A DNA stretch of 64,000 nt from a virus (Duplodnaviria; Caudoviricetes). The notes beneath the pieces are model-generated. The model searched no databases. It was not told the origin of the DNA and was given only the letters and a program-made list of their open reading frames with translations. Location of the stretch: the IMG/VR virus record IMGVR_UViG_3300005512_000003. One strand, given 5' to 3'. This document shows positions 42,938-60,666 of the stretch, in pieces. How positions within the stretch are numbered: position 1 is the stretch's first letter; each line of letters starts with the position of its first letter. Position numbers and translations under genes: made by a program.

Positions 42938-42959
42938 TATAAATAACTAGAAACAAAGT
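42938..42959 (+). repeat. 22-bp late-promoter repeat, copy 1 (copy 2 at 55911..55932)
   Basis: TATAAATAACTAGAAACAAAGT is identical at both sites, each before a MADRYPL gene. Confidence 0.9.
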
Positions 42960-45070: not shown

Positions 45071-45114
45071 AACTGTCACAGGGACCCCGCGGGGTCCCTT
45101 TGTCATGCTATAAT
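45071..45114 (+). promoter_or_regulatory. Early promoter cassette with a 20-bp perfect palindrome
   Basis: AACTGTCACA, AGGGACCCCGCGGGGTCCCT, TGCTATAAT. Confidence 0.75.
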
Positions 45115-45138
45115 ACATTCATGTTCAAAGGCACCTCT

Positions 45139-45198
45139 GTGATTCAACTTCGTCCTCATCAGATAGCAAGGGTTTCTAAAAAACTGCTAGGGGAATGA
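45139..45198 (+). pseudogene. Orphan 5' fragment of the SF2 helicase
   Basis: GTG-IQLRPHQ matches the helicase start (M)LTLRPHQQ at 45901, then runs into unrelated sequence and a stop. Confidence 0.65.
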
Positions 45199-45200
45199 GA

Positions 45201-45263
45201 GATAAATAATAGTGCTTTTATGTGTGGTAACTAAAAGCATAAGGGGCACTTTGCCCCTTTTTT
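45201..45263 (+). ncRNA. Putative two-hairpin antisense RNA element 1
   Basis: GATAAATA, stem TGCTTTTA/TAAAAGCA with an 11-nt loop, terminator-like AAGGGGCA-CTT-TGCCCCTT+T run; complementary to 45289..45306. Confidence 0.6.
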
Positions 45264-45307
45264 ACTGTCTAAGTCTTATAAATATTACTACCACACATAA
45301 AAAGCAG

Positions 45308-45856
45308 ATGGAATACTACACTTACGCATATTTGCGTGAAGATGGAACACCCTATTATATTGGTAAAGGAAAATACCACAAAGGGTATAAGTATCATAGG
45401 ATGTCGCAGAAACACACTTGCGGTGTTCCTCCACAAAATAGAAGAATAGTGCTAAAAGATTATCTATCCTTAGAAGATTCTATAAAACACGAAGAATATA
45501 TGATAGACTTATATGGATTGATATGTGATGGGACGGGGATACTAAGAAACTTTGTAAGAGATAGTCGTGGTGGTAGTAGAAAAGGCAGAAAACTTTCAGA
45601 AGAAACTAAACAAAGAATGTCCCTTGCGATGAAAAAGCGGTGGGAAAAAGGATGCTATGATAATGAAGAATATAGAAACAAAATATCAGAAAGTAATAGG
45701 AATAGTCCAAGAGTTGTGAAACATAGTGAGGAAACAAAGACTAAGATAAGTAAGTCTGCTAAGGGAAGACAACAAAGTGAAGAGACAAGACGAAAAAGGT
45801 CTGAAAGTGTAAAGAGGTCTTGGACGCTTCGCAAAGCGGCACAGACCCTTGACTGA
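45308..45856 (+). CDS. GIY-YIG (Seg-like) homing endonuclease with NUMOD3 repeats
   Basis: YYTYAYLREDGTPYYIGKG...R...E...GILRN; three (H/L/Q)SEET(K/R) repeats; start reassigned to ATG 45308 after TATAAATA. Confidence 0.85.
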   Translation: MEYYTYAYLREDGTPYYIGKGKYHKGYKYHRMSQKHTCGVPPQNRRIVLKDYLSLEDSIKHEEYMIDLYGLICDGTGILRNFVRDSRGGSRKGRKLSEETKQRMSLAMKKRWEKGCYDNEEYRNKISESNRNSPRVVKHSEETKTKISKSAKGRQQSEETRRKRSESVKRSWTLRKAAQTLD

Positions 45857-45877
45857 GTGCCCTGAGGATGCTATAAT
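45834..45877 (+). promoter_or_regulatory. Early promoter cassette for the helicase
   Basis: AAGCGGCACA, TTGACT-N17-TATAAT. Confidence 0.75.
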
Positions 45878-45900
45878 ACTTGTATTGATACGGAGACCTC

Positions 45901-47070
45901 TTGCTTACTCTTCGCCCGCACCAGCAGGACGCTACGGACGCTATGCTGGAGCATAAGAAAGGCACTATTGTTATTCCGACTGGTGGTGGAAAAACAATGT
46001 GTATGATTAAGTATTCGCTTGATTATTTTGACACTTATGACGCTGGCGTTATTGTAGTGGTCGCCCCCCGTCTGTTGCTGGCCGACCAACTCTGTGCTGA
46101 GTTTATGGAGTTTCACACAGATGTTGCGGTATTCCACGCACATAGTGGAGATACCAAGTATTCTAGCAGCACTCGCCCTGCTATTATTCACAACTGGAGT
46201 CAGCAAGCATATCGCAAACAACTTATTTTTACCACCTATCATTCTCTTCCTCGTTTGATGGAAGCAGAACTTGATGTTGATGTAATCCTGTTTGATGAAG
46301 CACATAACTCTGTGCAGAGAAACTTTTTCCCTGCTACGGAACACTTTGCTGCTGATTCTGATCGTTGCTATTTTTTCACTGCAACTCGCCGCACTTCTGC
46401 AACTATCTCCAAGCCTGGGATGAATGATGTTGCCGTTTATGGTGATGTTATTTACCGTGTTCCTGCTCCTAAACTGGTAAATGAGGGATATATCCTTCCT
46501 CCAGTCATTAAAGCGAAAAAGTTTGAGGTTCTTAAGGCAAATGAGATTTCTGCCGACCGTGACTGTAACAATATTATAGAAACTCTACAAGAAAACAGCA
46601 CCAGCAAAGTTCTTGTTTGCGTTAAGAGTGCTCGCCAACTTATCAACTTGATGTCTCAAACTGATTTTGCTACTCAACTGAATGATATGGGGTATTCTTA
46701 TCTTTATATCACCAGCAAGACGGGTGCAATCATTGATGGACAAAAAGTCAATCGTGAGGTTTTCTTTGATACTCTTAATGCTTGGGGCAAAGACCCTTCC
46801 AAGAAGTTTGTTTGTCTCCATCGCTCTATTTTGAGTGAAGGTATTTCTGTTAATGGTCTTGAGTCGGTTATTTTTCTTCGTAATATGGATGTGATTGAGA
46901 TGACCCAAACTATCGGAAGAGTTCTTCGCACCGCTCCTGATAAAACTTATGGTCTTTGTGTGGTGCCAGTGTATTCTCAAGTTGGTATTGCTACGGAGAA
47001 GCGTATGCAGAATGTTGTTGATACTGTTTTCGGTCGTGGTGAGATGCTTGATAGTGTAGTCAAGCGATAG
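45901..47070 (+). CDS. Superfamily II DEAH helicase (ResIII-like)
   Basis: LRPHQ Q-motif, PTGGGKT, DEAH, TAT, LSEGIS, QTIGRVLR. Confidence 0.92.
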   Translation: MLTLRPHQQDATDAMLEHKKGTIVIPTGGGKTMCMIKYSLDYFDTYDAGVIVVVAPRLLLADQLCAEFMEFHTDVAVFHAHSGDTKYSSSTRPAIIHNWSQQAYRKQLIFTTYHSLPRLMEAELDVDVILFDEAHNSVQRNFFPATEHFAADSDRCYFFTATRRTSATISKPGMNDVAVYGDVIYRVPAPKLVNEGYILPPVIKAKKFEVLKANEISADRDCNNIIETLQENSTSKVLVCVKSARQLINLMSQTDFATQLNDMGYSYLYITSKTGAIIDGQKVNREVFFDTLNAWGKDPSKKFVCLHRSILSEGISVNGLESVIFLRNMDVIEMTQTIGRVLRTAPDKTYGLCVVPVYSQVGIATEKRMQNVVDTVFGRGEMLDSVVKR

Positions 47071-47076
47071 ATATAT

Positions 47077-47124
47077 GTGGGCAGCAACAGAAGTCTGGGG
47101 AGATAGATGTTGCGTAAGTCCCAC
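47077..47124 (+). ncRNA. Putative hairpin antisense element 2
   Basis: Stem GTGGG-CA-GCAAC / GTTGC-GTAAGT-CCCAC; the loop carries GAAGTCTGGGGA, the exact complement of 47154..47165. Confidence 0.55.
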
Positions 47125-47166
47125 ACTTATGTTATACTAAATAGTAATAGTCATCCCCAGACTTCA

Positions 47167-47652
47167 ATGAAAGAATACTACACTTACGCATATTTGCGTG
47201 AAGACGGAACTCCCTACTATGTTGGTAAGGGTAAAGAAGATAGAGTATATAAAAAACATCGAGGACACACAGTTCCATCTAAAGATAGGATACTATTTCT
47301 AAAGAAAAATCTTACTGAAGAAGAAGCATATAAGCACGAAGTTTATATGATTGCAATACTTGGTAGGAAAGATATAAAGACTGGTATCTTACACAATAAA
47401 ACTGATGGTGGTTCTGGTGGAGATACTGGGTATCTTGGTTCTGAAGAACATAAAGAACTTATGAGAAAAAGGACAGGTGATAAGAATAGTTTTTACGGTC
47501 GCAAACACACTCCAGAGGCGCTAGAGCGTATCAGTAACGCTCTTAAGGGTAGAACCGCTTGGAACAAGGATAAGTGCCTTCCTGACGCGCAGGTGAGCGC
47601 ACACGCACTCTATATGAGAGAGTGGCGGATGAAGAACCGTCACAGGGGCTAG
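47167..47652 (+). CDS. GIY-YIG (Seg-like) homing endonuclease with NUMOD3
   Basis: YYTYAYLREDGTPYYVGKG..R...EAYKHE...GILHNKTDGG; FYGRKHT.E, KGRTAWNK; start reassigned to ATG 47167. Confidence 0.85.
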   Translation: MKEYYTYAYLREDGTPYYVGKGKEDRVYKKHRGHTVPSKDRILFLKKNLTEEEAYKHEVYMIAILGRKDIKTGILHNKTDGGSGGDTGYLGSEEHKELMRKRTGDKNSFYGRKHTPEALERISNALKGRTAWNKDKCLPDAQVSAHALYMREWRMKNRHRG

Positions 47653-47685
47653 CATCTGCTGTTCCTTTCACTGTATAATACATTC

Positions 47686-47910
47686 ATGACAAAGACACCA
47701 ATGCCTGCCATCAAAGCAAAAACCAAGTTTATTTGCGTTTCTCCCATCTCTCGCAAGGCTAAGAATCGTTTTGCTAATGAGATGTCAAACCTACATAGTT
47801 GCAAGGTAGAACAAGAAACAGAAGATATGTTTTTTCTGTCTTCTATTTCTGGTTGCTACTTTTTCTGGGTGCCTAAAACTGGTAACGAACACTGGAGGAT
47901 CGAAAAATGA
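47686..47910 (+). CDS. Cyanophage early hypothetical protein
   Basis: V.PISRKAKNRFANEM..LHSC.VEQE; follows an early promoter cassette (47635..47679). Confidence 0.75.
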   Translation: MTKTPMPAIKAKTKFICVSPISRKAKNRFANEMSNLHSCKVEQETEDMFFLSSISGCYFFWVPKTGNEHWRIEK

Positions 47911-48104
47911 AGGACCAAAACACAATTGCTGATGGAGAGTCCAAGAAAGACAAATGGAATCGAGGACTTGATATCTTTATTGAGTCCGTCATTGAACCCG
48001 ATCCTGCATTAAGAGCTTGCGCTCACAATCAAAAGTGTTATCATGAACTTATGGATGTGAGGGAAAATGTACTTCAGTATCTCAAAACTCTAAGGTGGAA
48101 CTGA
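47907..48104 (+). CDS. Hypothetical protein
   Basis: ATGA-coupled ORF; LR.CAHNQKCYHELM. Confidence 0.75.
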   Translation: MKDQNTIADGESKKDKWNRGLDIFIESVIEPDPALRACAHNQKCYHELMDVRENVLQYLKTLRWN

Positions 48105-48138
48105 GATAATTAATAAGGAACTATTCACATAACTTGAC

Positions 48139-48303
48139 ATGAATCCCGACGAAATTAGTCTCAGCACTACAAGTAGGCAGTTCACTTATGAAAAGTTGTC
48201 TCGTGAAGTAGAGAACTTGAATCTTGAACAAATCCGAGATATGTGCAAGTGCTACATTAAACTCTACCTGAAACAACAGGAATCAATCATGGGTTCTGTA
48301 TGA
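48139..48303 (+). CDS. nblA: NblA-like phycobilisome degradation protein (54 aa, not in the ORF track)
   Basis: MNPDEISLSTTSRQFTYEKLSREVENLNLEQIRDMCKCYIKLYLKQQ: size and L(S)..QF......V..(M/L)..EQ two-helix pattern of NblA. Confidence 0.5.
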   Translation: MNPDEISLSTTSRQFTYEKLSREVENLNLEQIRDMCKCYIKLYLKQQESIMGSV

Positions 48304-48434
48304 AATCCAACCTCACCCCTGTGTTAATGTTTCTGGGTGTTATCTTTGCCACTCTTTGTGTTATTGTCGCAGGGTATTTTCATGGTAATATGGATGTTAC
48401 CAAAGTCTATCACTCTCTCCACAACTTTACATGA
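48300..48434 (+). CDS. Small membrane protein (44 aa)
   Basis: MKSNLTPVLMFLGVIFATLCVIVAGYFHGNM...; ATGA overlaps on both sides. Confidence 0.65.
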   Translation: MKSNLTPVLMFLGVIFATLCVIVAGYFHGNMDVTKVYHSLHNFT

Positions 48435-48869
48435 ACCTTTCCCTGCAAGAAGTAGATCATATTCTGAAAGCACTTGAAACAATGTCATCCCATGATATTG
48501 CTCGCGCAAGAGAACATGTTGTCAATGGGGTGTCAGATCACCCAGAACTGATTCAAAAACTTAAGGACTATCGTCTTCGCCTGACTTGACATATGTGAAA
48601 GGATGGAAGTGTATCTACCTGTGAGGAAGATTGCCTCACGAATGTAAAAGCAAAAGCAGCACAGATTTTCAAGGTTGTAAGAGATAAGGCAGCTTACGAC
48701 CCTAAATATCAACAGATGAGAAAAACTTGGAGGGCATCCAAATGAGCACCCAACCATATAAACAGTCCGTCAAAACTGACTCAAGAGGTCACAAAGAAAT
48801 TTGGGAATGGCAGGAGACTCCTGAACTCCGAGAGTTCAGGGAAAAACAAGAAGCATTAAACAAAAAGTC

Positions 48870-49196
48870 GTGAGAATCGAAAAGTATTGGGGTTGGTATG
48901 AGATTCTGAATGAGGACCCACATTTAGTCGTAAAGAAGGTATTCCTCAATCCAGACTCCATATCACCCCTACAATATGAAACTCGTGTTACTAAGTACTG
49001 GACTCTGATCGAAGGATCAGGGTCTGTTTGTTTGGGGAAACCTGATAAGTCTACGTGGCAGACTATAGCAGGATCAACGTGGAAAGTTCACGATAAGATG
49101 ATGCATCAAATATCAGCATCCAAAGATGGTTTGTTGTATATTGAGATCATCTGTGGTAATATTGCTGATAACAATACAGTCGTATATGAGGTATAA
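48870..49196 (+). CDS. Cupin, mannose-6-phosphate isomerase type II C-terminal-like
   Basis: EKYWGWYEIL...VKK.FLNP....LQY...YW..IEG.G...H.I...IEI. Confidence 0.7.
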   Translation: MRIEKYWGWYEILNEDPHLVVKKVFLNPDSISPLQYETRVTKYWTLIEGSGSVCLGKPDKSTWQTIAGSTWKVHDKMMHQISASKDGLLYIEIICGNIADNNTVVYEV

Positions 49197-49198
49197 TC

Positions 49199-49387
49199 AT
49201 GGGATATACTGATTGGAATGAGTTTGAAAGATCTCTAATGCACTTTGGTACTCGCATTGATGTGATTATGGCAATGCAAATGGCTGATAAGATTTCTGAA
49301 GAAGAGGCATATCAGCAAGTCAAATCAATGTATAAAGAGTTAAAGAAAGCACACAAAAAGTTTGACAAAGATCAAGACAACAGTTAA
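49199..49387 (+). CDS. Cyanophage hypothetical protein
   Basis: FERSLMHFGTRIDVI.AMQMADKIS.EEAYQQVK. Confidence 0.75.
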   Translation: MGYTDWNEFERSLMHFGTRIDVIMAMQMADKISEEEAYQQVKSMYKELKKAHKKFDKDQDNS

Positions 49388-49414
49388 TATATAAGTGAAG
49401 ATATACCAACATCA

Positions 49415-50068
49415 ATGAAAATCTTTCTTGACACAGCAGATTTTGATGCTATTGCGACACGATATAGTACTGGACTGATTGATGGCGTCACGACAAATCC
49501 AACTCTGATTAAGAAGAGTGGTCGTGATCCTGTAGAAGTTATCAAAGAGATCTCCGAGGCATTCCCTAAAATGGAATCAATCTCTGCAGAGGTTGTTGCT
49601 GATAATGCCGCAGATATGATTGCTCAAGCAAAGGCATTTGAGGATATGGAGAATGTGACTATCAAAGTTCCGTGTACGATTGATGGTCTGCTTGCATGTC
49701 GTGATCTGTCACTGATCTATGATAAGACTGTGAATGTGACACTGATATTCTCTCCTGCTCAAGCGATTCTTGCATCAAAAGCAGGTGCAACTTATGTGTC
49801 TCCTTTTGTAGGTCGTGTGGATGATAACTCCTTCAATGGTGTTGGTCTGGTGAGAGATATTGCACAGATCTATCGTGAGCACATGGTTCGCACTCAAACA
49901 CTGGCTGCATCGATTCGTAGTGTGAATCAAGTTGCTGAGTGTTTTGCTGTGGGTGCAGAAGTTGTAACCATGCCACCAGCAATCTTTGATAAGATGTATC
50001 ATCACATTCTGACTGATAAAGGTCTGGAACTCTTTCAGAAAGACTGGGATGCAGTCACAAAGGGATAA
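49415..50068 (+). CDS. talC: Transaldolase TalC (auxiliary metabolic gene)
   Basis: IFLDTAD, GVTTNPTLI, Schiff-base lysine in TIKVP, NVTLIFS, YVSPFVGR, LAASIR. Confidence 0.97.
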   Translation: MKIFLDTADFDAIATRYSTGLIDGVTTNPTLIKKSGRDPVEVIKEISEAFPKMESISAEVVADNAADMIAQAKAFEDMENVTIKVPCTIDGLLACRDLSLIYDKTVNVTLIFSPAQAILASKAGATYVSPFVGRVDDNSFNGVGLVRDIAQIYREHMVRTQTLAASIRSVNQVAECFAVGAEVVTMPPAIFDKMYHHILTDKGLELFQKDWDAVTKG

Positions 50069-50110
50069 ATAGTCTTACCATAAATCTGTTTCAACTGGAG
50101 GTTGATCCTA

Positions 50111-50386
50111 ATGGCATTCACAGAAAGACACGAACACAAACTAGAAATCATTCCACCATACAATACTATTCAATGTCGTAGAGCAGATATTATTGAAAAA
50201 GATGGTAAAGAAGTTGGTAGAACATATCACCGTCATGTTAGAGTTCCTGGTAGTGATGTCTCAGAAGATTGTGCAGAACTTCAAGCAGTCGCAGCAGCAT
50301 TGTGGACTGAAGAAGTGATTGCAGCATATCAAGCATCTGTTGCAGAACAAAATCCTGCTAGCCCTGTTGGTATTGCATCGACTTAA
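50111..50386 (+). CDS. Small fibre-associated protein
   Basis: IQCRRADIIEKDG.EV.RTYHRHV..PG.DVS...VAAALWT.EVIAAY; late promoter upstream. Confidence 0.65.
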   Translation: MAFTERHEHKLEIIPPYNTIQCRRADIIEKDGKEVGRTYHRHVRVPGSDVSEDCAELQAVAAALWTEEVIAAYQASVAEQNPASPVGIAST

Positions 50387-50420
50387 TAAATAGTCTTACT
50401 GATTCATAGTAAGACTATAA

Positions 50421-51692
50421 ATGGCGCTGACAAAAGTTGATGGTAACCAAATTAAAACGCCGATAGGTATTGGAACTCAGAGTCCATCTACAACAATACA
50501 TTTAGTTGATAGTGTTCCTACCATTAGATTTGAAGATACTGAACAGGGACCAACTGTTTATGGGTCAGTTGGTGGTAATGGTGGAAATGTTATTTTAAAA
50601 GCAGATGAAGAAAATGCATCTGGTTCTACCAGGATTGCATTTGAAATCGATGGAAGTGAAAAACTTCGTGTAGATTCCGATGGTAATGTCGCCATCGGAA
50701 CTGATACAACTACATATGCTTTAGAAGTATATAAACAACAAAATGCAGGAACAACAGTTGAAATAAACAATCAAAATACTCAAGCAAGCGCACATTGCAG
50801 ATTAGGACTGGATGCTGATGTTGCATCACTAAATTTGTATTCTCATGGATCTGGAAGATCTTTAACAAGATATGAAACTGTTTTAAATGAATGGTCTGAG
50901 ATATCAAACACTGCTGGAAATGGTATTGTAATAGGAACACAAAGCCAAGTTCCTATTGTGTTTGGAACTAATGATAACTTGAGAGTTGTTATCAACGGAG
51001 ATAATGGATATGTTGGAGTTGGTACAACAAATGCAGATTCTCCAGTTCACTTAGAAAATACTGGTCCTGCAATAACTTTTGTTGATACAGATGACGCAAC
51101 AAAATCAAGATTAAGATATAATACTCCAAATCTTATCCTTGAAGCAGATATTAATAATGGTGCAGCAGATAGTAGAATATCATTTAGAATTGATGATGCC
51201 ACCACTTCTGGAGAAGTATTTGCAGTTGACTCTGCTGGAGTTTATTTTAATGAGAGCACTAGTGCCTTTCAATCTTATGAAGAAGGTACATGGACTCCAG
51301 TACCCTCTGATGCAAATTCTGGGGGAAACACTGCGTCTGGAACTTTTAATGGTTACTATATCCGAATAGGAGACATGGTATACATTAGTTGTGATCTTAC
51401 TAATATTGATACAACTGGAATGACGGGTGGAAACAACTTTTTTATTCAAGGATTGCCATTTAGTGGTGCAGTATCACAAACTGGAAGTATAAGGCATACT
51501 GGAATGGTTGATGCAACATTTATAACATACACTGGATCTTATCTTGCGGCATCGGCTCAAGATAATACTGATTATATTAGGATATTCGTGCAGGATAATA
51601 CTGGAGGAAACTCTAATGTAATGGATGTCAATGCAATCACTACCAGCGGATCATCAGATATTCGACTTAGTTTGTGGTATCAAACTGATTAG
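50421..51692 (+). CDS. Tail fibre protein
   Basis: MALTKV start; GIGT repeats; C-terminal YEEGTWTP...G.Y.RIG..V...GLPF tip domain. Confidence 0.8.
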   Translation: MALTKVDGNQIKTPIGIGTQSPSTTIHLVDSVPTIRFEDTEQGPTVYGSVGGNGGNVILKADEENASGSTRIAFEIDGSEKLRVDSDGNVAIGTDTTTYALEVYKQQNAGTTVEINNQNTQASAHCRLGLDADVASLNLYSHGSGRSLTRYETVLNEWSEISNTAGNGIVIGTQSQVPIVFGTNDNLRVVINGDNGYVGVGTTNADSPVHLENTGPAITFVDTDDATKSRLRYNTPNLILEADINNGAADSRISFRIDDATTSGEVFAVDSAGVYFNESTSAFQSYEEGTWTPVPSDANSGGNTASGTFNGYYIRIGDMVYISCDLTNIDTTGMTGGNNFFIQGLPFSGAVSQTGSIRHTGMVDATFITYTGSYLAASAQDNTDYIRIFVQDNTGGNSNVMDVNAITTSGSSDIRLSLWYQTD

Positions 51693-51727
51693 ATAAATAA
51701 ATAAAACAAAGACTTAGAAGGAACAAA

Positions 51728-53428
51728 ATGGCTGATCGTTATCCATTAGTAGTTGCATCTGGAGTTCTACAAGAGATTCCAAGTGGTGATAATATAAATC
51801 TGACAGGTGCTGGTCTTACAAACGCTGTTTCTATTGCTACAACAACACTCACTGTTGCTGATGTAGATATCACTCCTATTACTGGTGTTACTACTTATTA
51901 TGTAACTACTGCAGGAAATGATAGAACTGGAGATGGATCTGCCTCAAACCCATGGGCAACTCCACATAAAGCTATCCAAAATTTAAGAAACAGAAAAATA
52001 TCACTTAGCGGTTCATACGGTAAAGTAACTGTCGATGTTGGTGTTGGTACATATAGATTTGGTTTAAATCAAACTGCTGCTGGAACTGACTATGAAAACA
52101 AAACATATCTTTTAAGCGGTGGGTCTGGAACGGGTGCAGTTGTTGCTATTACAACCACTACGAGTGGTGCTGTAGTTCAGGCAAAACTTCTTGATGGGGG
52201 AACAGGATATCTTGCTTCTGACACTTTAGGAATCACAACAACCATTGGTTCTGGTGCTCAGTTTGGTATTTTCCATGTTGGAGACTCTGGAGAAATTTTA
52301 GGGGAACTTAGAGTTGATCACCCAGATGGAGATGCTATTCTTATAACTGGTGGTGCAGTAACTGGAACGAAACCAGGACTACGAGGTAATCATTTCTATA
52401 ATCAATGTGGTGTAGGTATTGGATCTGATCCTGCAGGAACAGGTACATCATTTGAATGGTCAAGTCTTTATGATTCAACATCCCCAGCTGGTGCATATCC
52501 AAATCCAATGGTAGATGGTGTTGGTAACTCTGAAACATCTGAAGTTTATAATAGAGGAATCTTAGAAGCATACTATGGTTCTAGATTATATTTTCACGGA
52601 TGTAATGGATTTGCAAGTAATGGAGTTCCTGCAAAACTAGATAAACTTCTTGCTGTTGGGTTTAGAGCAGATGGAAAGATGTTGAACTCTGCTGGAGCAG
52701 CAACAACTGTTGTTACTGCATATTATGGAGCAGCAAATCGTATTGAATCTGACGCATCTATTGAAGATGATGCAACAGTTGAAGAAAACAATCTTTCATC
52801 AGACTCTTACAGTACTCAAGGATCATTTAACTTTGGTCCTGATATTTCTATTCATGGATTTTATAGATCTGTGATTATGGATGGTGGAATCTTGGATGGA
52901 GCATATACTACATTTACAAACGCTAACTATATTGGTGTAGCAGGTAATGTTGGATCACATATAAAAATTGGTCGTGGGAGAATATTGAACTGTAGATCAA
53001 ACTTGATTAATGCATCTACAGCAAGAGTTTCTGCTCAATCCTGTTTTATAAGCAACTCTGCTGTTAATGGAGTAGCAGGATCTTATAATGGATTTGTAAA
53101 CTTACAATCTACTCTGGAAGAAACACTTGTATCTTATGGTGCTTCAACTGTTATTGCAAACAATAGAAACCATGGAGTTGTTATGAGATATGGTGCAACT
53201 GCAAGAGTTGTTGCAACTTCACTTTCTGATAACATATATGTTTATGGTAATGGAAGTTCTGTGGATCGCGCTCAGTTAGAGGTTGCAAATATGGCATCTA
53301 TTCATGTCACTAATCCCGAAAAAGTCATAGTTGCAACTTCTTCTGGAGCTGGCGCAACTACAAGTCCTGGATATGGTGTCACTGGTAACTTTAACTCTAT
53401 TATTACATCTTATACTGCTGGTGCGTGA
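51728..53428 (+). CDS. Tailspike-like beta-helix protein with MADRYPL anchor
   Basis: YYVTTAGND..GDGS...PWAT..KA; paralog of 42971..44710. Confidence 0.72.
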   Translation: MADRYPLVVASGVLQEIPSGDNINLTGAGLTNAVSIATTTLTVADVDITPITGVTTYYVTTAGNDRTGDGSASNPWATPHKAIQNLRNRKISLSGSYGKVTVDVGVGTYRFGLNQTAAGTDYENKTYLLSGGSGTGAVVAITTTTSGAVVQAKLLDGGTGYLASDTLGITTTIGSGAQFGIFHVGDSGEILGELRVDHPDGDAILITGGAVTGTKPGLRGNHFYNQCGVGIGSDPAGTGTSFEWSSLYDSTSPAGAYPNPMVDGVGNSETSEVYNRGILEAYYGSRLYFHGCNGFASNGVPAKLDKLLAVGFRADGKMLNSAGAATTVVTAYYGAANRIESDASIEDDATVEENNLSSDSYSTQGSFNFGPDISIHGFYRSVIMDGGILDGAYTTFTNANYIGVAGNVGSHIKIGRGRILNCRSNLINASTARVSAQSCFISNSAVNGVAGSYNGFVNLQSTLEETLVSYGASTVIANNRNHGVVMRYGATARVVATSLSDNIYVYGNGSSVDRAQLEVANMASIHVTNPEKVIVATSSGAGATTSPGYGVTGNFNSIITSYTAGA

Positions 53429-53439
53429 TATAAAATCTC

Positions 53440-53468
53440 AAAAGACCCTCTACCGAGGGTCTTTTTTT
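53440..53468 (+). terminator. Rho-independent terminator
   Basis: AAAAGACCCTC-TACC-GAGGGTCTTTTTTT. Confidence 0.85.
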
Positions 53469-53510
53469 ATGCCTAAATACCCATGAATCCTGAATACATG
53501 AATAGGAACA

Positions 53511-53723
53511 ATGACTGAACAACAACAGCATCTTCAACAAGTTCTTGAACAGCAACAACAACTCGCAGCAGAGTTTGAAGAACTTCAAAGACAAATGACT
53601 TCAAAGAGAGAACTTTTTATCAAACTTCAAGGGATTGCAGAGTATCTTCAGCAGACTGGTGTAACTCTTCCTACTGAAGAAGAAGTTGCAACTCCAGAAG
53701 TAGAAGTTCAGACTGCTGAGTGA
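53511..53723 (+). CDS. Small coiled-coil protein
   Basis: Gln/Glu-rich heptads; CTAAATA upstream. Confidence 0.7.
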   Translation: MTEQQQHLQQVLEQQQQLAAEFEELQRQMTSKRELFIKLQGIAEYLQQTGVTLPTEEEVATPEVEVQTAE

Positions 53724-53755
53724 CATAAATTATTAAATAAGACTTGGTAAAATAA

Positions 53756-55900
53756 ATGGCAATCACCAGAGCGACAAACCTTGCAGGATTGGGAACAGTT
53801 TTTGATGCTCTCACTGATGGTGGAGGTTTGTCGATCTCTGGATTGTCAACTTTTTCAGCACCATTTCATGTTGGTTTTGGTGGAACTGTTATAACAACTA
53901 CTGATGCTGGTTTGGTTGGTATTGGAAGCACAATTCCCACGAGACCATTAGATATTCTTAAAGAAGATGAGATACTTTTAAATCTAGCAAGAACAACATC
54001 TTCAAGTGGAGTCCAAGCAAATCTTGAGATTAAAGCTATAACTAGTGCCTCTATTACTGAAAGAACAGAATCTTTTGGTCCTTCTATTATTGGTAGATAT
54101 ACCGACTCTTCTAATACGGGTCGGAATCTTGGATCTATTATCTTTAAAAGAGAGGAAAGTGGAGTTAATGGTGAAATACTTTTAAGAACTTATGCCAATA
54201 CAGCAACAAGTGAAGTAAGTATTGATTCTACAGGAGCAGTTGGAATAGGATCATCTTCAACTGGAGCAAGATTGTTTGCTATAGATGATGGTAGTAGTCC
54301 AATCGCTGCACCAATAGCAAATTTTGAAAGAGTAAACAATCATATTCCTTCTACTAACCTAGATCCTAATCTTTCTACTTTAAGACTTAAAGATCATAGT
54401 GACAATGTGATCATTCATGCAACTAATCAGACTATCAAACCATTATTTACTTTAAATGGTCAGGGACAAGTTGGTGTAGGAACAACTAGCCCATTTAAAG
54501 GTACAATGGCCAATTTAACTGGATTGGATTGTCATGGAGAACTATGGATAGGGGGTGCTCCAGATTTACCATCAGTACCTCAATATTCTACTCTAAGATT
54601 TAGAAACGCTACAGTTGGGCAAGAATATGCAACTATTAGAATAGGTAGTGACGAGAGATTGTATACTGAAGTTTCTGGTCAAGAAAGATTATCAATAGAT
54701 ACAACTGGAAATATAATTGCAAATACTGGAAATGGTAATGTCGGAATCGCAACTACGCTTTCAAAAATATCATCTTTTACAAGACTTAATATAAAAGGTG
54801 GACTTGAAATATCTCAAGATACTTCATCTAGTTTCTTATTGTCAAGAGAAAGTGGCGGACAAATGACATGTGAACATGTATTTGCTTCCAGTTCTAACTC
54901 TCCAAACTATACTTTTGGTCAAAACTTATTATGGACTGGAGAACTAGCAGGAGTAACAGTAAGAGATGGTAACCCTTATTATGAAAACTATGCACCAGTA
55001 TCTGGAAAAAAAGAGTTTGGATTTATATCTGCAGCAACAAAAGATACCTCATTTACTTCAGGTAATCTCATTAAAGTTTTAGTATTAACTGATGATAATA
55101 GAATCGGAGTTAAGCATGATGATCCAAACTCTGCTATTGACTTGGCAGGAACTGATGATGAAATAAGATGGTATAGAGATGACCGAGCTCGGTATGGTGG
55201 CATCAGATATAATGGAAGTAACTTTATTATAAAACAACCATTTGGAGATAACTTACAAGTTACTGACAGTTCAGACTCTATGATTTTTCAGATTAGTAGC
55301 ACTGGTATTATTAACACCTTACCAACTGCAAATGATACAACAGCAAATGCAGCAAATGTTTTTATCAGCTCAGTTAATGGACAATTAAGTAGATCTACAT
55401 CTTCTATTAGATATAAAACTCAAGTTGAAGATTTAGAATCATCAAGATCTGATGCAATATTAGGATTAAGACCTGTTTGGTATCGATCTACGACTTCTAA
55501 TGATAATCAAAACTGGTCTTGGTATGGATTGATTGCAGAGGAGGTTGCAGAAATCGAACCAAGATTAGTATTTTGGGGACATCATGATTCAGACTATGAA
55601 GAGGTTTTAGAACAGACAGTTGATTCTGATGGAGTTCCTCAGTTCAAGGTTGAAAATGTAAAAATTATTGGTATTGGAACAACTGGGGAAACAGTTGTTG
55701 GTATTGGAACAACATTAGTTCCTGTAATGTCAAAAGTTAAAAAAGTTAAGGAAGGTGTGGAAGAAAGTCCTCAAGGTGTTCAATATGATAGATTGACTGT
55801 TTTACTTCTTGATGTCATAAAAAGACAAAAAATAGAACTAGATGATTTAAAATCAAAAGTGCAAGTTATTGCAACCCAAGTTGGTATTGCGTCAACTTAA
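53756..55900 (+). CDS. Tail fibre with C-terminal S74-like intramolecular chaperone
   Basis: RSTSSIRYKT.VEDL...LRPVWY...YGLIAEEVAEIEPRLV...VQYDRL. Confidence 0.82.
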   Translation: MAITRATNLAGLGTVFDALTDGGGLSISGLSTFSAPFHVGFGGTVITTTDAGLVGIGSTIPTRPLDILKEDEILLNLARTTSSSGVQANLEIKAITSASITERTESFGPSIIGRYTDSSNTGRNLGSIIFKREESGVNGEILLRTYANTATSEVSIDSTGAVGIGSSSTGARLFAIDDGSSPIAAPIANFERVNNHIPSTNLDPNLSTLRLKDHSDNVIIHATNQTIKPLFTLNGQGQVGVGTTSPFKGTMANLTGLDCHGELWIGGAPDLPSVPQYSTLRFRNATVGQEYATIRIGSDERLYTEVSGQERLSIDTTGNIIANTGNGNVGIATTLSKISSFTRLNIKGGLEISQDTSSSFLLSRESGGQMTCEHVFASSSNSPNYTFGQNLLWTGELAGVTVRDGNPYYENYAPVSGKKEFGFISAATKDTSFTSGNLIKVLVLTDDNRIGVKHDDPNSAIDLAGTDDEIRWYRDDRARYGGIRYNGSNFIIKQPFGDNLQVTDSSDSMIFQISSTGIINTLPTANDTTANAANVFISSVNGQLSRSTSSIRYKTQVEDLESSRSDAILGLRPVWYRSTTSNDNQNWSWYGLIAEEVAEIEPRLVFWGHHDSDYEEVLEQTVDSDGVPQFKVENVKIIGIGTTGETVVGIGTTLVPVMSKVKKVKEGVEESPQGVQYDRLTVLLLDVIKRQKIELDDLKSKVQVIATQVGIAST

Positions 55901-55943
55901 GATTAAAACTTATAAATAACTAGAAACAAAGTAACAGAGAAAA

Positions 55944-57224
55944 ATGGCGGATCGTTATCCATTAGTTGTAGATTCATCTAACTTTAGAATCGAAGAACTA
56001 CCAGCAGGAGATAGTTTAGATTTTTCTGGTGCATCTATCAAGAGTGCTTCTATCACTGGTCCTTGCACAGTTACAGGATCTACATCAGATTTTGAGTCTC
56101 CTCTTCTTAGAATTACTCAAACTGGTAATGGACATGCTCTTTTAGTTGAGGATGACACGCATCCAGATACAACACCAGGTCTTGTTATTTCTGGTGTTGG
56201 ATCTTGTGGTATCGGAACAACGATTCCTTCTGCTAGATTTGATGTTAGATTGCAATCCAATGCAGGATTTGCATATACCACCAATCCTGTTGGACAAAAT
56301 GTAAATGATAGAATCACTGCTGCTATATTCGGTAATCTTGGTACTTTAGGAAATGATAATAATATAGAAACCCAAATAGGTATAGCTGCTGGTAGAACAG
56401 GTCAGGCAGTATATACTCTTGGCGTTAAAAAGACCGATGGAAATATTGGCAATTTTAACATGAGAAGATCCATTGGAAGTGGATCTACGGATTTCATGAC
56501 TGTTGTTGGAACTGCCACCAGCGCACAAATTGGTATTGGAACCACTCAACCAAAAGGAGTTATTGATATTTTCTGTAATCCAGGTGACACTGCAATCACA
56601 TTAAGTGGTAGTGGACTTGAAAATGATAGATTTGGTCAAATTAAGTTTGACTCACAAGCAATGACTCTTATAGCACCATCTGATGGTGATAACATTCGAC
56701 TCATTGCTCAAAATAATGTAGGTAGAGTCGAACTTTGGACAGCAGAAACACAAGTTTCTGCGGCTGCTTCTGTTAGAGTTGCAATTAGCACTGTAGGTAT
56801 TGTTACTTTCTTCCAAACGTATAACTATACAACTGCTTCTGCAGCAAATATGGTTATTGAGTCAAATGGAGAGATTAAGAGATCTACCTCATCGGCAAGA
56901 TACAAAACAAATATCAATAATGTTACAGATGAAGAATCAAAATCTGTTCTGAGTTTCAGACCAGTAACATATCAATCAAAAGATAATGCTGATGATTTGG
57001 ATGCGACTTGGTTTGGTTTGATTGCAGAAGAGGTTGCAGAAATCGAACCAAGACTTGTTAGTTATGGGTATAGCGAAGATGCTTGGGATCTTATAGACGG
57101 AAGAAAAGTTCTCAAAGAAGGTGCAGAAAAAGTTCCACAGGGTGTAATGTATGATAAGATCGTAGTTCTGTTGATTGATAGAATCAAAAAGTTAGAAGCA
57201 AGATTAGAGTCTGCTGGTCTCTGA
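55944..57224 (+). CDS. Tail fibre with MADRYPL anchor and S74-like chaperone
   Basis: MADRYPLVVDSS; RSTSSARYKTNI...FGLIAEEVAEIEPRLV...VMYDKI. Confidence 0.82.
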   Translation: MADRYPLVVDSSNFRIEELPAGDSLDFSGASIKSASITGPCTVTGSTSDFESPLLRITQTGNGHALLVEDDTHPDTTPGLVISGVGSCGIGTTIPSARFDVRLQSNAGFAYTTNPVGQNVNDRITAAIFGNLGTLGNDNNIETQIGIAAGRTGQAVYTLGVKKTDGNIGNFNMRRSIGSGSTDFMTVVGTATSAQIGIGTTQPKGVIDIFCNPGDTAITLSGSGLENDRFGQIKFDSQAMTLIAPSDGDNIRLIAQNNVGRVELWTAETQVSAAASVRVAISTVGIVTFFQTYNYTTASAANMVIESNGEIKRSTSSARYKTNINNVTDEESKSVLSFRPVTYQSKDNADDLDATWFGLIAEEVAEIEPRLVSYGYSEDAWDLIDGRKVLKEGAEKVPQGVMYDKIVVLLIDRIKKLEARLESAGL

Positions 57225-57238
57225 TCAGACACTCTAAG

Positions 57239-57284
57239 AACTGTCACACTGGGGTCTTCGGACCCCTTTTTCATGCCCTATAAT
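57239..57284 (+). promoter_or_regulatory. Early promoter cassette with an embedded terminator hairpin
   Basis: AACTGTCACA, GGGGTC-TTCG-GACCCC-TTTTT, TATAAT. Confidence 0.78.
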
Positions 57285-57310
57285 ACAGAGGTAATCAAGG
57301 GAAGGACCCC

Positions 57311-57766
57311 GTGACCGTCACTGCAACCCGCCAAGAGTTCAGCGAGTTCTGTGCTCAGCGTGATGCTCAGAACACCATTCAACTGAATGTTGTGAAATAT
57401 TGCTGGATGCTGTGTGATGCTCTGCGTCAGAACTACATTGAGTACAGCATCAAATCTCATGAGCGTTCTATTCTCAATGAGATCAACTCCGATTATCATC
57501 AGGCATGTATTGAAGATCTCAAGAATGGTCATTCCGATTATGACTTTACCTTTGAGTCTGGTCGTAAGTATCACAAGATCATCATGAACGCTAATGGTTC
57601 CCGTTCGGTTCATGCTTTCGTTGACAAGAAGACTGGTTCCGTGTATAAACCAGCCTCATTTAAAACTCCTGCCAAAGGTGTTCGCTTCAACCTCAACATT
57701 ATCAGTGAGCGTGAGTGGTTGTTTGAAAATGCAGACTGGGCAGGTGGATATCTTTACAAGCGTTGA
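57311..57766 (+). CDS. Cyanophage early hypothetical protein
   Basis: GRKYHKI....SVHAFVDKKTG.VYKPAS.K.PAKGVRFNL...ADWAGGYLY. Confidence 0.8.
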   Translation: MTVTATRQEFSEFCAQRDAQNTIQLNVVKYCWMLCDALRQNYIEYSIKSHERSILNEINSDYHQACIEDLKNGHSDYDFTFESGRKYHKIIMNANGSRSVHAFVDKKTGSVYKPASFKTPAKGVRFNLNIISEREWLFENADWAGGYLYKR

Positions 57767-57812
57767 GAGACGCCTCTGAGGCGCTCTCAGGAGCGTCTCT
57801 GACCCTTTCTAT

Positions 57813-58145
57813 GTGATTATGGCAACCTATCGTTTTCGTGTCTGGCAGAGTGGCAGTGCTCCCTATGAGGTCACTGGTAATGGAATGTCATGGGGATATG
57901 CAAGAGAGAATGTTGCTCGTAGAGAAGGAGTGGATGTTTCGGATGTAATGCCCATAAATGGTAATGCTCCGATTGATGATGATTCATCCAGTTCTGGTGG
58001 AAGTAGTGGATTTGATGCTATGGGAAGTATAATGCTGATAGGAGTAATCCTATTGTTTGGATTGATCATCACATACTGGAAATGGATACTGATTGGTGGT
58101 ATAATAGTAGGAATACTTTGGTGGTGGTGTAAGGACGAACTATGA
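57813..58145 (+). CDS. Hypothetical membrane protein
   Basis: Two C-terminal hydrophobic segments. Confidence 0.7.
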   Translation: MIMATYRFRVWQSGSAPYEVTGNGMSWGYARENVARREGVDVSDVMPINGNAPIDDDSSSSGGSSGFDAMGSIMLIGVILLFGLIITYWKWILIGGIIVGILWWWCKDEL

Positions 58146-58621
58146 AAGAGCATCCAAAATATAAAGGTATTTTTGTATGTCCTGATGGTAGGATCTTTAG
58201 TAACAAAAGAGGAAATCTACGACAGTTGAAACCACAAAAAACTGGATCTAATAAGAAATATAATAATGTTTATCTTTCCATATACGTTCAGTCAAGACCA
58301 AATAGAAAGTCTGTAAAAATACATAGATTAGTTGCGGAAACCTATATACCAAATCCAAACAATCTTCCAGTGGTTCATCATATCGATGAAAATAAGTTGA
58401 ATAATGATGTATCAAACTTGGAATGGGTTACACAACAACAAAATTGTGAACATACTAGATGTAAAAATAAATATTCGCTTATTGACACAAAAACTAATCT
58501 AGTGTATGAAATAACTAACATATCAAAGTTTGCTAAGGAAAATAATCTTGATATTTCTTCTTTGACGAAAGTTATAAGGGGGGAAAGAAAAATCTGTAAG
58601 GGGTTTGTATTAAATGTTTAA
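58142..58621 (+). CDS. HNH homing endonuclease (NUMOD4-HNH type)
   Basis: IHRLVAETYIPNPNNLPVVHHIDENKLNNDVSNLEWVTQQQN. Confidence 0.9.
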   Translation: MKEHPKYKGIFVCPDGRIFSNKRGNLRQLKPQKTGSNKKYNNVYLSIYVQSRPNRKSVKIHRLVAETYIPNPNNLPVVHHIDENKLNNDVSNLEWVTQQQNCEHTRCKNKYSLIDTKTNLVYEITNISKFAKENNLDISSLTKVIRGERKICKGFVLNV

Positions 58622-59480
58622 ACCGTTGCCGCTCTTCATCTGGGCAGGTGGTAAAAATAAGATGCTGAAGCACTATCTTCCTCTGATGCCCACAGAGGTT
58701 GATAGTTATTGCGAACCATTCTTTGGCGGTGGTGCAATGTTCATTCATGTTGTCAAGACATACAATCCATCACGATTGGTCATTAATGACATCAACGATG
58801 ATGTGATGAACATTTATCGTTCGATTGCACATGATTATGATGTATTCAAAGAGAGACTGAATGCTCTAGAGGACCATTATATTCCTCTGAAGAAAGAAGA
58901 TCGAAAGAAGTATTACTTTGAAGTGCGTCATGAACATGCATACGATTATGAGAAGTGGTCTAAACCAGTAGAAGCAGCAACTTTATACTTTTTGATGAAG
59001 ACGGGGTTCAACGGTATCTACCAGTTGAATCAAAACACAAATGGTAGGTATGGAACTCCGTCAGGACTTCTGAATCAAAAAGATGTCATTTATGATCGAA
59101 ATGTGTTAGACTGGTGGCATCAAGTTCTGCAGAAAACAGAGATTCTCTCTGGTGACTACAATAATGCAGTTCAAGATATAAAGACCTTTCACTTCTTCGA
59201 TCCACCATATCGTGACAGTTTTGCTGATTATGGAAATGGATTTGGTGATGATCAACTGTTGCGTCTGATTGCAATCTCAGATTTGCGTGAGAATGTATTT
59301 CTGTGCAATCGTGACAGTGGAGATGGATGGTTTGATGATAACAAAGGCGATCTAAATATCGCACGGTTTCCTGTAACTTATACAGCAGGAAGACGAAAGA
59401 AAACCGATGCAGGATTTGTAGCAAAACCAGCAACAGAAGTTCTGCTCTATCGTACACAACAACACAACCACTTTGATTGA
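58614..59480 (+). CDS. dam: DNA adenine methyltransferase (D12/Dam class)
   Basis: WAGGK, YCEPFFGGG, INDIN, GFNG, DPPY. Confidence 0.88.
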   Translation: MFKPLPLFIWAGGKNKMLKHYLPLMPTEVDSYCEPFFGGGAMFIHVVKTYNPSRLVINDINDDVMNIYRSIAHDYDVFKERLNALEDHYIPLKKEDRKKYYFEVRHEHAYDYEKWSKPVEAATLYFLMKTGFNGIYQLNQNTNGRYGTPSGLLNQKDVIYDRNVLDWWHQVLQKTEILSGDYNNAVQDIKTFHFFDPPYRDSFADYGNGFGDDQLLRLIAISDLRENVFLCNRDSGDGWFDDNKGDLNIARFPVTYTAGRRKKTDAGFVAKPATEVLLYRTQQHNHFD

Positions 59481-59907
59481 CATGTTTATTCCTGAAGAAG
59501 AATACCGAGACATCTTGAAAATCATGCCTGTTTTCTGCATGGATTTTCTGATCCGATGCAAAGGAGAGTTTCTATTGATTAAAAGAACTCAAGAACCTGT
59601 AAAAGGTGTCTATTGGGTGATTGGTGGAAGAATGAGGCATCAAGAGACTATGGAAGATCTTGCGATGAGAGTACAAACCAGAGAAGTTGGTCGTTATCTG
59701 GGTCTTGGAAAGACCATTGGGTTTTCTAACTATTTCTTCCCTGAGGTTGAAGGTGCTAGAGCTACTCATACTCCTACATTGCTTCAACTGATTGATGTAA
59801 CGGAAAAATTTGATCCTAAACTTGATGACACCAGTGCAGACTTCATCTGGAGTGATAAACTACCTGAAGAACTGGAGAAGCAGACTCTGTGGTTGTGCCA
59901 GTGGTAA
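59473..59907 (+). CDS. Nudix hydrolase, GDP-mannose mannosyl hydrolase-like
   Basis: IPEEEY..IL..MP..C.D.LI...LLIKR..EPVKG.YW.IGGR...ET....A.R...REVG. Confidence 0.75.
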   Translation: MIDMFIPEEEYRDILKIMPVFCMDFLIRCKGEFLLIKRTQEPVKGVYWVIGGRMRHQETMEDLAMRVQTREVGRYLGLGKTIGFSNYFFPEVEGARATHTPTLLQLIDVTEKFDPKLDDTSADFIWSDKLPEELEKQTLWLCQW

Positions 59908-59938
59908 TATCTAAATAATTTGAAAGAAACATAGACCA

Positions 59939-60142
59939 ATGAAAACCTTTGGGCACTTTCAAGAAGATATCCAACAACGTAGAGCGGCGATTGCTAAACA
60001 AAGAATGAAAGCAAATGCATCGGATACAGCAAACGCTGCTGAAGCAGAACGCCAAAGGGAAACTAATCGCAATGTCAACGCGATGAGTAAAAGAATCAAA
60101 GACCAAGCAAAAGATGAGTTGAAGAAAGAGTTGGGATTTTAG
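59939..60142 (+). CDS. Small late protein, possible internal head protein
   Basis: CTAAATA at ~59911; N-terminus MKTFGHFQE; charged helix. Confidence 0.6.
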   Translation: MKTFGHFQEDIQQRRAAIAKQRMKANASDTANAAEAERQRETNRNVNAMSKRIKDQAKDELKKELGF

Positions 60143-60163
60143 TGATTATTGGGCAGCATAAGT

Positions 60164-60226
60164 GATAAATACTGATGCTTATGTTTGGCGACTAGGCAGA
60201 GAGAGGGGCAGAAATGTCCCTCTCTT
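60164..60226 (+). ncRNA. Putative two-hairpin antisense RNA element 3 (homolog of element 1)
   Basis: GATAAATA, stem TGCTTA/TAGGCA with an 11-nt loop, hairpin AGAGAGGGGCA-GAAA-TGTCCCTCTCT; complementary to 60242..60256. Confidence 0.6.
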
Positions 60227-60257
60227 GTATAAATAACATCAGCCAAACATAAAGCAG

Positions 60258-60653
60258 ATGGAAGATGTATTTGCATCCTTAAGGGATGTTGTAGTTGATG
60301 AGAGCCGTTTTGTGCCAATTGAGGATGGATGGTCAGGTGATTGGATGTATTTTCAACCAGGTCATACGATAAACTTGGGAAGACCAACATCAGAACCACA
60401 AAAACAAAAAGCAAGAGAAAATGCACTCAAACGCAACGTAAATCAAAAGGGTGCTAATAATAGAAACGCAAAGACTTGGCGTGTTGTTTATATTGATGGG
60501 AGAGAGATTATCATAAAATCTATTCACGATTGGGCACAGAGGAATGGATACAGCAAGTCAGGCATTTACAATCTTAAAAACGGTTTATGGAAAAAGTACA
60601 AGGACCTTGTGGCAGTTGAGGAAGTGGCACAGGAGGCACCCACAGCACCCTGA
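60258..60653 (+). CDS. Homing-endonuclease-derived DNA-binding protein (NUMOD3/HTH-like, no visible nuclease domain)
   Basis: GRPTSEPQKQK...KGANN.NAKTW.V...G.EI.IKSI.DWA..NGY; no GIY-YIG or HNH motif. Confidence 0.6.
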   Translation: MEDVFASLRDVVVDESRFVPIEDGWSGDWMYFQPGHTINLGRPTSEPQKQKARENALKRNVNQKGANNRNAKTWRVVYIDGREIIIKSIHDWAQRNGYSKSGIYNLKNGLWKKYKDLVAVEEVAQEAPTAP

Positions 60654-60666
60654 AACCGTGTATATT
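60622..60666 (+). promoter_or_regulatory. Early promoter cassette
   Basis: TGTGGCAGTT-GAGG-AAGTGGCACA imperfect palindrome; TATATT 29 nt downstream. Confidence 0.7.

Follow-up and report, generated by a model that had tools for sequence, protein, structure and literature searches.

Two families of portable translational-mask cassettes appear to travel with the free-standing homing-endonuclease genes, or with genes derived from them, of T4-like cyanophages, a reading to which we assign a probability of about 0.75. Three such cassettes, the elements E1, E2 and E3, lie in the window analyzed here, a 64,000-nucleotide (nt) stretch of the IMG/VR virus record IMGVR_UViG_3300005512_000003 from a divergent T4-like cyanomyovirus. 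They precede the genes HEG1, HEG2 and gene 3 (proteins P0001, P0002 and P0003). Each carries an upstream segment, the anti-leader, that is complementary to the leader of its own gene, and a late-promoter motif stands between the two complementary arms, both in E1 to E3 and in each of the aligned copies. The sequence features described for these elements in an initial annotation were all found in place (Table 1).

The elements follow two architectures. In type A (E1 and E3), a late-promoter box (P1) is followed after 4–5 nt by a display hairpin, whose 5' arm and loop form the anti-leader, by a GC hairpin that usually has a T run, by a consensus late promoter (P2) and, after about 5 nt, by the leader and the ATG. 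Type B (E2) has two stems, outer and inner, together with an internal loop of invariant sequence GUAAGU and an apical loop of about 20 nt that holds the anti-leader, followed by the late promoter and the leader.

Complementarity, folding and covariation

The complementarity between leader and upstream sequence is far above chance. For each plus-strand ATG of the window (n = 1432), the 25 nt at the start were compared with the region 28–160 nt upstream, and the longest exact complement was recorded. The three elements take the first three places, with 14, 12 and 11 nt; the next unrelated site has 11 nt. Folded with RNAfold, the read-through RNA is predicted to adopt the long-range helix between the two arms as its structure of minimum free energy (z-scores −3.3 to −5.8). 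The masked state is predicted to be more stable by 11.5–12.3 kcal/mol than the open state, in which the upstream part remains folded on itself. For the last 15 bases of the leader, the predicted pairing probability is about 0.85 in the read-through RNA and 0.14–0.34 in RNA that starts at the internal late promoter.

Loop and leader covary strongly across homologues in both types. The antisense strand is also held in a stem-loop of its own, as the initial annotation had proposed, namely in a conserved, covarying hairpin in type A and in a scaffold of the same kind in type B. For type B, 35 distinct copies were aligned with MAFFT without fitting to a model; 89.7% of the cells are paired, compared with 27–51% when the partners are slid. 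Compensatory changes on both sides occur in 14 of the 22 pairs, and the covariation score is 0.364 against 0.149 ± 0.011 in shuffled alignments (0/500). The outer stem, the inner stem and the loop-leader helix each contain compensatory pairs. The block made up of the 3' arm of the inner stem, GUAAGU and the outer stem is nearly invariant in the 35 copies, and the neighbouring positions vary. An alternative hairpin, in which the 3' arm of the inner stem and GUAAGU pair with the following UUUAUG, is predicted for E2 in its masked fold and for many other type B copies; its 5' arm is invariant. Kink-turn and loop-E readings of the GUAAGU loop were rejected, as they do not fit the consensus of these motifs.

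For type A, RNAalifold chooses the long-range helix on an unfitted alignment, with compensatory changes in 9 of its 10 pairs. Among 54 distinct copies, 96.9% of the cells are paired (at most 56% when slid), with a score of 0.723 compared with 0.222; this alignment was fitted to the model and therefore leans towards the structure. An alignment-free comparison gives a mean of −21.6 kcal/mol for cognate anti-leader/leader duplexes and −11.3 kcal/mol for non-cognate ones. The 3' arm of the local hairpin is not aligned by column in either the MAFFT or the model-fitted alignment, and this hairpin was therefore assessed by the energy of chimeras and permutations: cognate halves have −6.25 kcal/mol and permuted halves −3.41 ± 0.31 kcal/mol (0/5000 permutations). 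All 44 distinct type A upstream parts (44/44) fold alone into exactly two hairpins, and the stem of the GC hairpin covaries in an unfitted alignment. G-U pairs are tolerated at several positions in both types, which suggests a constraint at the RNA rather than the DNA level.

Distribution among phages and genes

Both architectures recur at homologues of the three proteins in IMG/VR contigs. The covariance models find two type A copies in the window, six in the isolate S-SRM01 and two in the isolate B3; for type B the counts are one, one and zero, and a type B search of the endonuclease-free S-CAM9 and S-SKS1 gave 0 copies in each. In contigs and isolates alike, the elements are thus conserved RNA structures linked to genes of the homing-endonuclease type, as first suggested. 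In S-SRM01 the cassettes sit before varied GIY-YIG variants and HNH-like open reading frames, and the genes behind cassettes, in many different flanks, also include that of the nuclease-less protein. The GenBank records of S-SRM01 and B3 carry no annotation of the elements, the S-SRM01 paper does not mention them, and no transcriptome paper on S-SRM01 was found. A comparison with Rfam 15, called for at the outset, returned no family at the gathering threshold over the elements, the matches in the window being two tRNAs only; in a relaxed search over the elements, the best sub-threshold scores were 16–24 bits against thresholds of 45–102.

The closest homologues of HEG1 (L055–L060; 72–75% identity) are preceded by a third form of leader, a simple hairpin in the plain T4 style. 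Leaders and nuclease genes are therefore shuffled as modules. In the contigs L122 and L082, a second type A cassette (L122:2725-2834 and L082:3216-3325) follows downstream at a distance of 1.3–1.8 kb from the first, so nuclease cassettes occur in tandem arrays. A further kind of leader, found in L068, L084, L085 and L089 ahead of the match at 1501, combines an upstream late-promoter box with a long terminator hairpin; its leader complementarity is weak (−7 to −12 kcal/mol), and it may be a degenerate or differently wired cassette. In the window itself, a 9-mer and a 5-mer at 60150-60163, just upstream of E3, correspond to the two blocks conserved at the 5' and 3' sides of the type B scaffold, and the middle is absent. 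These matches may be the relic of an older type B cassette that was replaced by type A.

Table 1. Features of the three elements and the genes behind them (window coordinates)
Feature	Position	Strand	Remarks
E1 P1, upstream late-promoter box GATAAATA	45201..45208	+	TAAATA core in 55/55 type A copies
E1 display hairpin	45213..45239	+	anti-leader = 5' arm + loop, 45213-45229; alone −8.3 kcal/mol
E1 intrinsic-terminator-like hairpin + T run	45241..45263	+	scored terminator: 8 pairs, 5 GC
E1 late promoter P2 TATAAATA	45277..45284	+	motif
E1 leader	45289..45307	+	pairs with 45213-45229, one bulged A
HEG1 (P0001)	45308..45859	+	ATG 45308; GIY-YIG-like N-terminus + NUMOD3 repeats
E2 scaffold	47077..47124	+	outer + inner stem, GUAAGU internal loop 47114-47119; model R2 102 bits
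E2 outer stem; inner stem	47077-47081/47120-47124; 47084-47088/47109-47113	+	
E2 apical-loop anti-leader	47090-47101	+	exact complement of 47154-47165
E2 late promoter CTAAATA	47137..47143	+	aligned block ATAAATA/CTAAATA in all type B members
E2 leader segment	47154..47165	+	ends 1 nt before ATG 47167
HEG2 (P0002)	47167..47655	+	GIY-YIG-like + NUMOD3
E3 P1, upstream late-promoter box GATAAATA	60164..60171	+	motif
E3 display hairpin	60176..60198	+	anti-leader in 5' arm + loop
E3 GC hairpin, GAAA-type loop	60199..60226	+	weak free T run; not scored terminator
E3 late promoter P2 TATAAATA	60228..60235	+	motif
E3 leader	60242..60257	+	complementary to hairpin arm + loop
Gene 3 (P0003)	60258..60656	+	ATG 60258; nuclease-less, C-terminal module as in GIY-YIG enzymes

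Proposed cis masking and its alternatives

The motif ATAAATA, expected about 7 times per strand, has 23 occurrences on the plus strand of the window and a single one on the minus strand. It usually lies 20–40 nt before a start codon, with structural genes following. Owing to this strand bias and position, it behaves as a late promoter. We infer late-promoter activity for TATAAATA and CTAAATA from the strand bias of the motif; variants of the G/A/C-ATAAATA and CTAAATA kind are also found ahead of real late genes in the window. Sigma-70-like early promoters upstream of the cassettes are possible sources of read-through RNA.

We propose that, on RNA started upstream of a cassette, the anti-leader of 11–20 nt would pair with the whole of the short leader, which lacks a Shine–Dalgarno sequence, to within 1–3 nt of the AUG. 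Because the leader would be covered, ribosomes could not load. Late mRNA would start between the arms, in type A at a predicted position that is the first complementary base of the leader; it would thus lack the anti-leader and be translatable. The anti-leader would be held in a self-folding display structure, either the 5' hairpin of type A or the apical loop of the two-stem scaffold of type B. This display could give a cassette the same fold in any genomic context, and its pre-formed loop could capture the emerging leader fast. Presumably, the anti-leader would need shielding from its flanks and from ribosomes ending the upstream gene, yet also single-stranded presentation.

Three points weigh against this proposal. 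First, a terminator-like hairpin stands between the arms in most type A copies (45/54), and RNAs that read through both arms may therefore be rare; if they are rare, the strong conservation of the pairing is harder to explain by cis action alone. Second, the cis model leaves the invariant upstream promoter box of type A without a role. Third, an intact inner stem of type B is probably incompatible with the full loop-leader helix of 12–14 bp.

A trans-acting small RNA is a further mode of action, one that concerns type A only and is compatible with the cis mask, and which we regard as possible, with the balance somewhat against it. Here, the late P1 would make an RNA of about 50 nt, from the base of the display hairpin to the terminator. 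Its loop would start pairing at the 5' end of the late mRNA for the nuclease and zip to the AUG, limiting or delaying the nuclease even late in infection. Several features of type A are consistent with such an RNA. The TAAATA core of P1 is kept in every copy at a fixed distance of 4–5 nt from the hairpin, despite a mean column identity of 58%. The predicted transcript start falls at the base of the hairpin, and the 5' end predicted for the P2 transcript is complementary to the loop. When folded by themselves, the upstream parts form exactly two hairpins, and the local hairpin covaries independently. The terminator stem covaries as well, and most copies have a T run: in 45 of 54 distinct copies, a core of 4–6 GC pairs is followed by 8 nt with at least five T. 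The two promoters are also asymmetric, as P2 has the consensus TATAAATA in 50/55 copies and P1 in 3/55. Finally, the P1 of E1 is not host-derived, since it lies inside an insertion into a duplicated helicase 5' end, a site at which S-SKS1 lacks any such box; variants of P1 also precede real late genes in the window.

Other observations argue against a small RNA. The module of P1, hairpin and terminator (model R3) is found only within complete cassettes (window 2/2, S-SRM01 6/6, B3 2/2), and read-through from P1 would just yield another masked mRNA. The initial annotation had given both E1 and E3 an upstream late promoter and a terminator-like hairpin. The P1 boxes are present in both, and the GC hairpin of E1 is a canonical terminator, but that of E3, like those of the L061 group, has a poor free T run and does not score as one. 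The loop display is the same in type B, where promoter and terminator are not consistently present. By eye, a TAAATA-like box was seen 5–8 nt upstream of type B in some contexts, mostly the same post-helicase one, and is absent from many others; the box upstream of E2 reads TAGATA, and we do not claim a consistent type B promoter. No terminator was found in type B. As type B displays its anti-leader without these signals, loop display alone is no evidence for a trans-acting RNA. Tentatively, and with rather less than even confidence, type A may be viewed as a two-gene unit, in which a weak late promoter makes an RNA of about 50 nt and a strong late promoter 65 bp downstream makes the nuclease mRNA, and type B as its promoter-less relative, an RNA switch between two states, the scaffold and the loop-leader helix. 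The suggestion that such an RNA is antitoxin-like finds no support; the targets are DNA-binding or nuclease proteins of 131–182 residues and not a small hydrophobic toxin.

It is unlikely that the invariant block of type B is instead an operator, in RNA or DNA, to which the nuclease or a phage regulator binds. The near-invariance of this block among variable neighbours would suit a protein site, and I-TevI is a known autorepressor at its late promoter (PMC2988022). However, the same block stands before a P0003-like gene (L053) and before diverse GIY-YIG proteins of 40–73% identity. These proteins have different DNA-binding parts, which makes a nuclease-specific operator improbable, and the stems that flank the block covary as RNA helices.

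Least probable of all, and very unlikely, is an element that acts in DNA, with inverted repeats and doubled late-promoter boxes serving recombination or mobility as in T4-type promoter-stem-loop cassettes: the modularity of the cassettes, the different simple hairpin before the closest HEG1 homologues, the possible type B relic upstream of E3 and the frequent coincidence of cassette left ends with the stop codon of the upstream gene would agree with it, but the tolerated G-U pairs are strand-specific, the complementarity always begins at the predicted transcript start and ends at the AUG, the arm, its hairpin partner and the leader covary three ways, and the T run of the terminator hairpin is on the coding strand only.

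The core logic of the cis mask is that of the known T4 I-TevI/segB/mobE mask. Masks of this type with a nested late promoter have been described for I-TevI, I-TevII, I-TevIII and segB, for mobE of Aeromonas phage Aeh1 and for T4 e, soc and 49 (PMC2988022). In marine metagenomes, Dassa et al. (2009) described 'fractured gene' loci whose free-standing endonuclease genes have an upstream hairpin containing TATAAATA (PMC2677866). These loci share with ours the marine, phage-like GIY-YIG/Vsr-type genes and two conserved, mutually complementary motifs; they differ in having a simple regulatory hairpin, and the text of that paper mentions no scaffold, upstream promoter, terminator or covariation analysis. 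The earlier statement that no described family matches the elements consequently holds for the display structures, for the unit of P1 plus terminator and for Rfam, and fails for the core mask, which was known (PMC2988022 and PMC2677866).

Like the T4-type masks, the cassettes belong to homing-endonuclease genes of T4-like phages, have an upstream segment that pairs with the initiation region on read-through RNA, and have a late promoter between the arms. In contrast to them, the cyanophage leaders have no Shine–Dalgarno sequence, and the whole leader of 17–20 nt is masked; the upstream arm is placed in a conserved hairpin or scaffold loop of its own; type A has, in addition, the invariant upstream late-promoter box and the terminator; and the cassette is a conserved sequence family common to different nuclease genes. 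The self-folding display hairpin or scaffold, together with the invariant upstream promoter and terminator of type A, appears to be undescribed so far.

Three further systems invite comparison. In the IS10 RNA-OUT/RNA-IN pair, a stable stem-loop RNA uses its loop to pair with the 5' end of the transposase mRNA, whose start it covers; RNA-OUT is an opposite-strand transcript that overlaps its target. The cassettes likewise direct a loop against the 5' end of the mRNA for a selfish element's enzyme, but their antisense segment lies upstream on the same strand, and its trans action is putative. Type I toxin-antitoxin systems (hok/sok, tisB/istR-1) rely on a small RNA that keeps a potentially harmful protein from being translated, as the putative cyanophage small RNA would; unlike them, the cassettes have no small membrane toxin and are same-strand tandems, and type B has no separate RNA gene. 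CfrI of cyanophage S-PM2 is an antisense RNA of about 225 nt over coding sequence that links psbA and the F-CphI endonuclease gene. It is also a non-coding RNA tied to a cyanophage homing-endonuclease gene, but a true antisense transcript and not a leader mask.

Homing endonucleases have to do almost no harm to their carrier phage, and the cassettes would show how this is achieved outside the T-even model. The module would be a self-contained RNA of about 100 nt that is independent of context and moves with nucleases of different families, and only its address segment of 11–20 nt co-evolves with the leader. If P1 does release a small RNA, type A would be a rare same-strand tandem of regulator and target, and its RNA the first small one linked to the control of homing endonucleases in cyanophages. 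If type A cassettes are two-gene units, each selfish nuclease would bring its own cassette-encoded, antisense-like dose limiter. With the models R1 and R2, late promoters and mobile nuclease insertions can be located in cyanophage DNA that lacks annotation, and the design of address plus scaffold could be a natural template for programmable translational masks.

Genes and neighbouring sequence

The initial annotation had assigned all three genes to the homing-endonuclease family, which is probable for HEG1 and HEG2. Both match Pfam NUMOD3 (E 3e-9 to 3e-10; HEG1 3.5e-9) and PHROG 'homing endonuclease' families (E 4e-12 to 7e-13; HEG1 7e-13). An N-terminal motif YxY...YIGKG is visible in both; the Pfam GIY-YIG match is below the cut-off, and a GIY-YIG match in PDB has E 0.012. 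HEG1 and HEG2 share 32 identical nt just past the start codon (45311-45342 and 47173-47204), and the proteins diverge later. This block holds a small hairpin of about −8.5 kcal/mol that is predicted to persist in the late RNA.

Gene 3 has no nuclease domain and keeps the C-terminal module only. P0003 has no match to a Pfam or PHROG family, and direct BLASTP comparison with P0001 and P0002 gave no similarity; weak PDB matches to RNase H1 (E ~0.05) are insignificant and were disregarded. In the family alignment, P0003 aligns with P0041 over its C-terminal ~95 residues, and its link to endonucleases comes only from there. In P0041, these residues are joined to a GIY-YIG-type N-terminus of the same kind as in HEG1 and HEG2. 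Judged from this alignment, gene 3 is therefore a nuclease-less derivative that keeps the DNA-binding-type C-terminal module of GIY-YIG enzymes.

A near-identity DNA search of the phage collection gave no match to the window. The UvsW-type helicase at 45901-47070 has at most 59% identity to Synechococcus phage helicases. Its promoter and first codons are present as two diverged copies that flank the HEG1 cassette: the orphan copy at 45100-45162 reads GTG-IQLRPHQ, and the real start at 45868-45927 reads TTG-LTLRPHQ. S-SKS1, which lacks the endonuclease, has the native TATAAT/TTG helicase arrangement with no P1-like box there. The 3' end of HEG1 embeds a sigma-70-like helicase promoter (45849-45877); a promoter for the downstream gene inside the 3' end of a nuclease gene has been described for T4 seg and mob genes. 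A 15-nt block (TATAAT, 6 nt, ATG) occurs twice identically, at 45109-45123 and 47674-47688, and this spacing between TATAAT and ATG suggests leaderless or near-leaderless early mRNAs.

Three large late genes (42971, 51728 and 55944; window positions 42938, 51692 and 55911) begin with the peptide MADRYPL. As two of them have a nearly identical late promoter and leader, these genes look like paralogous fibre-like genes whose distal parts have been swapped.

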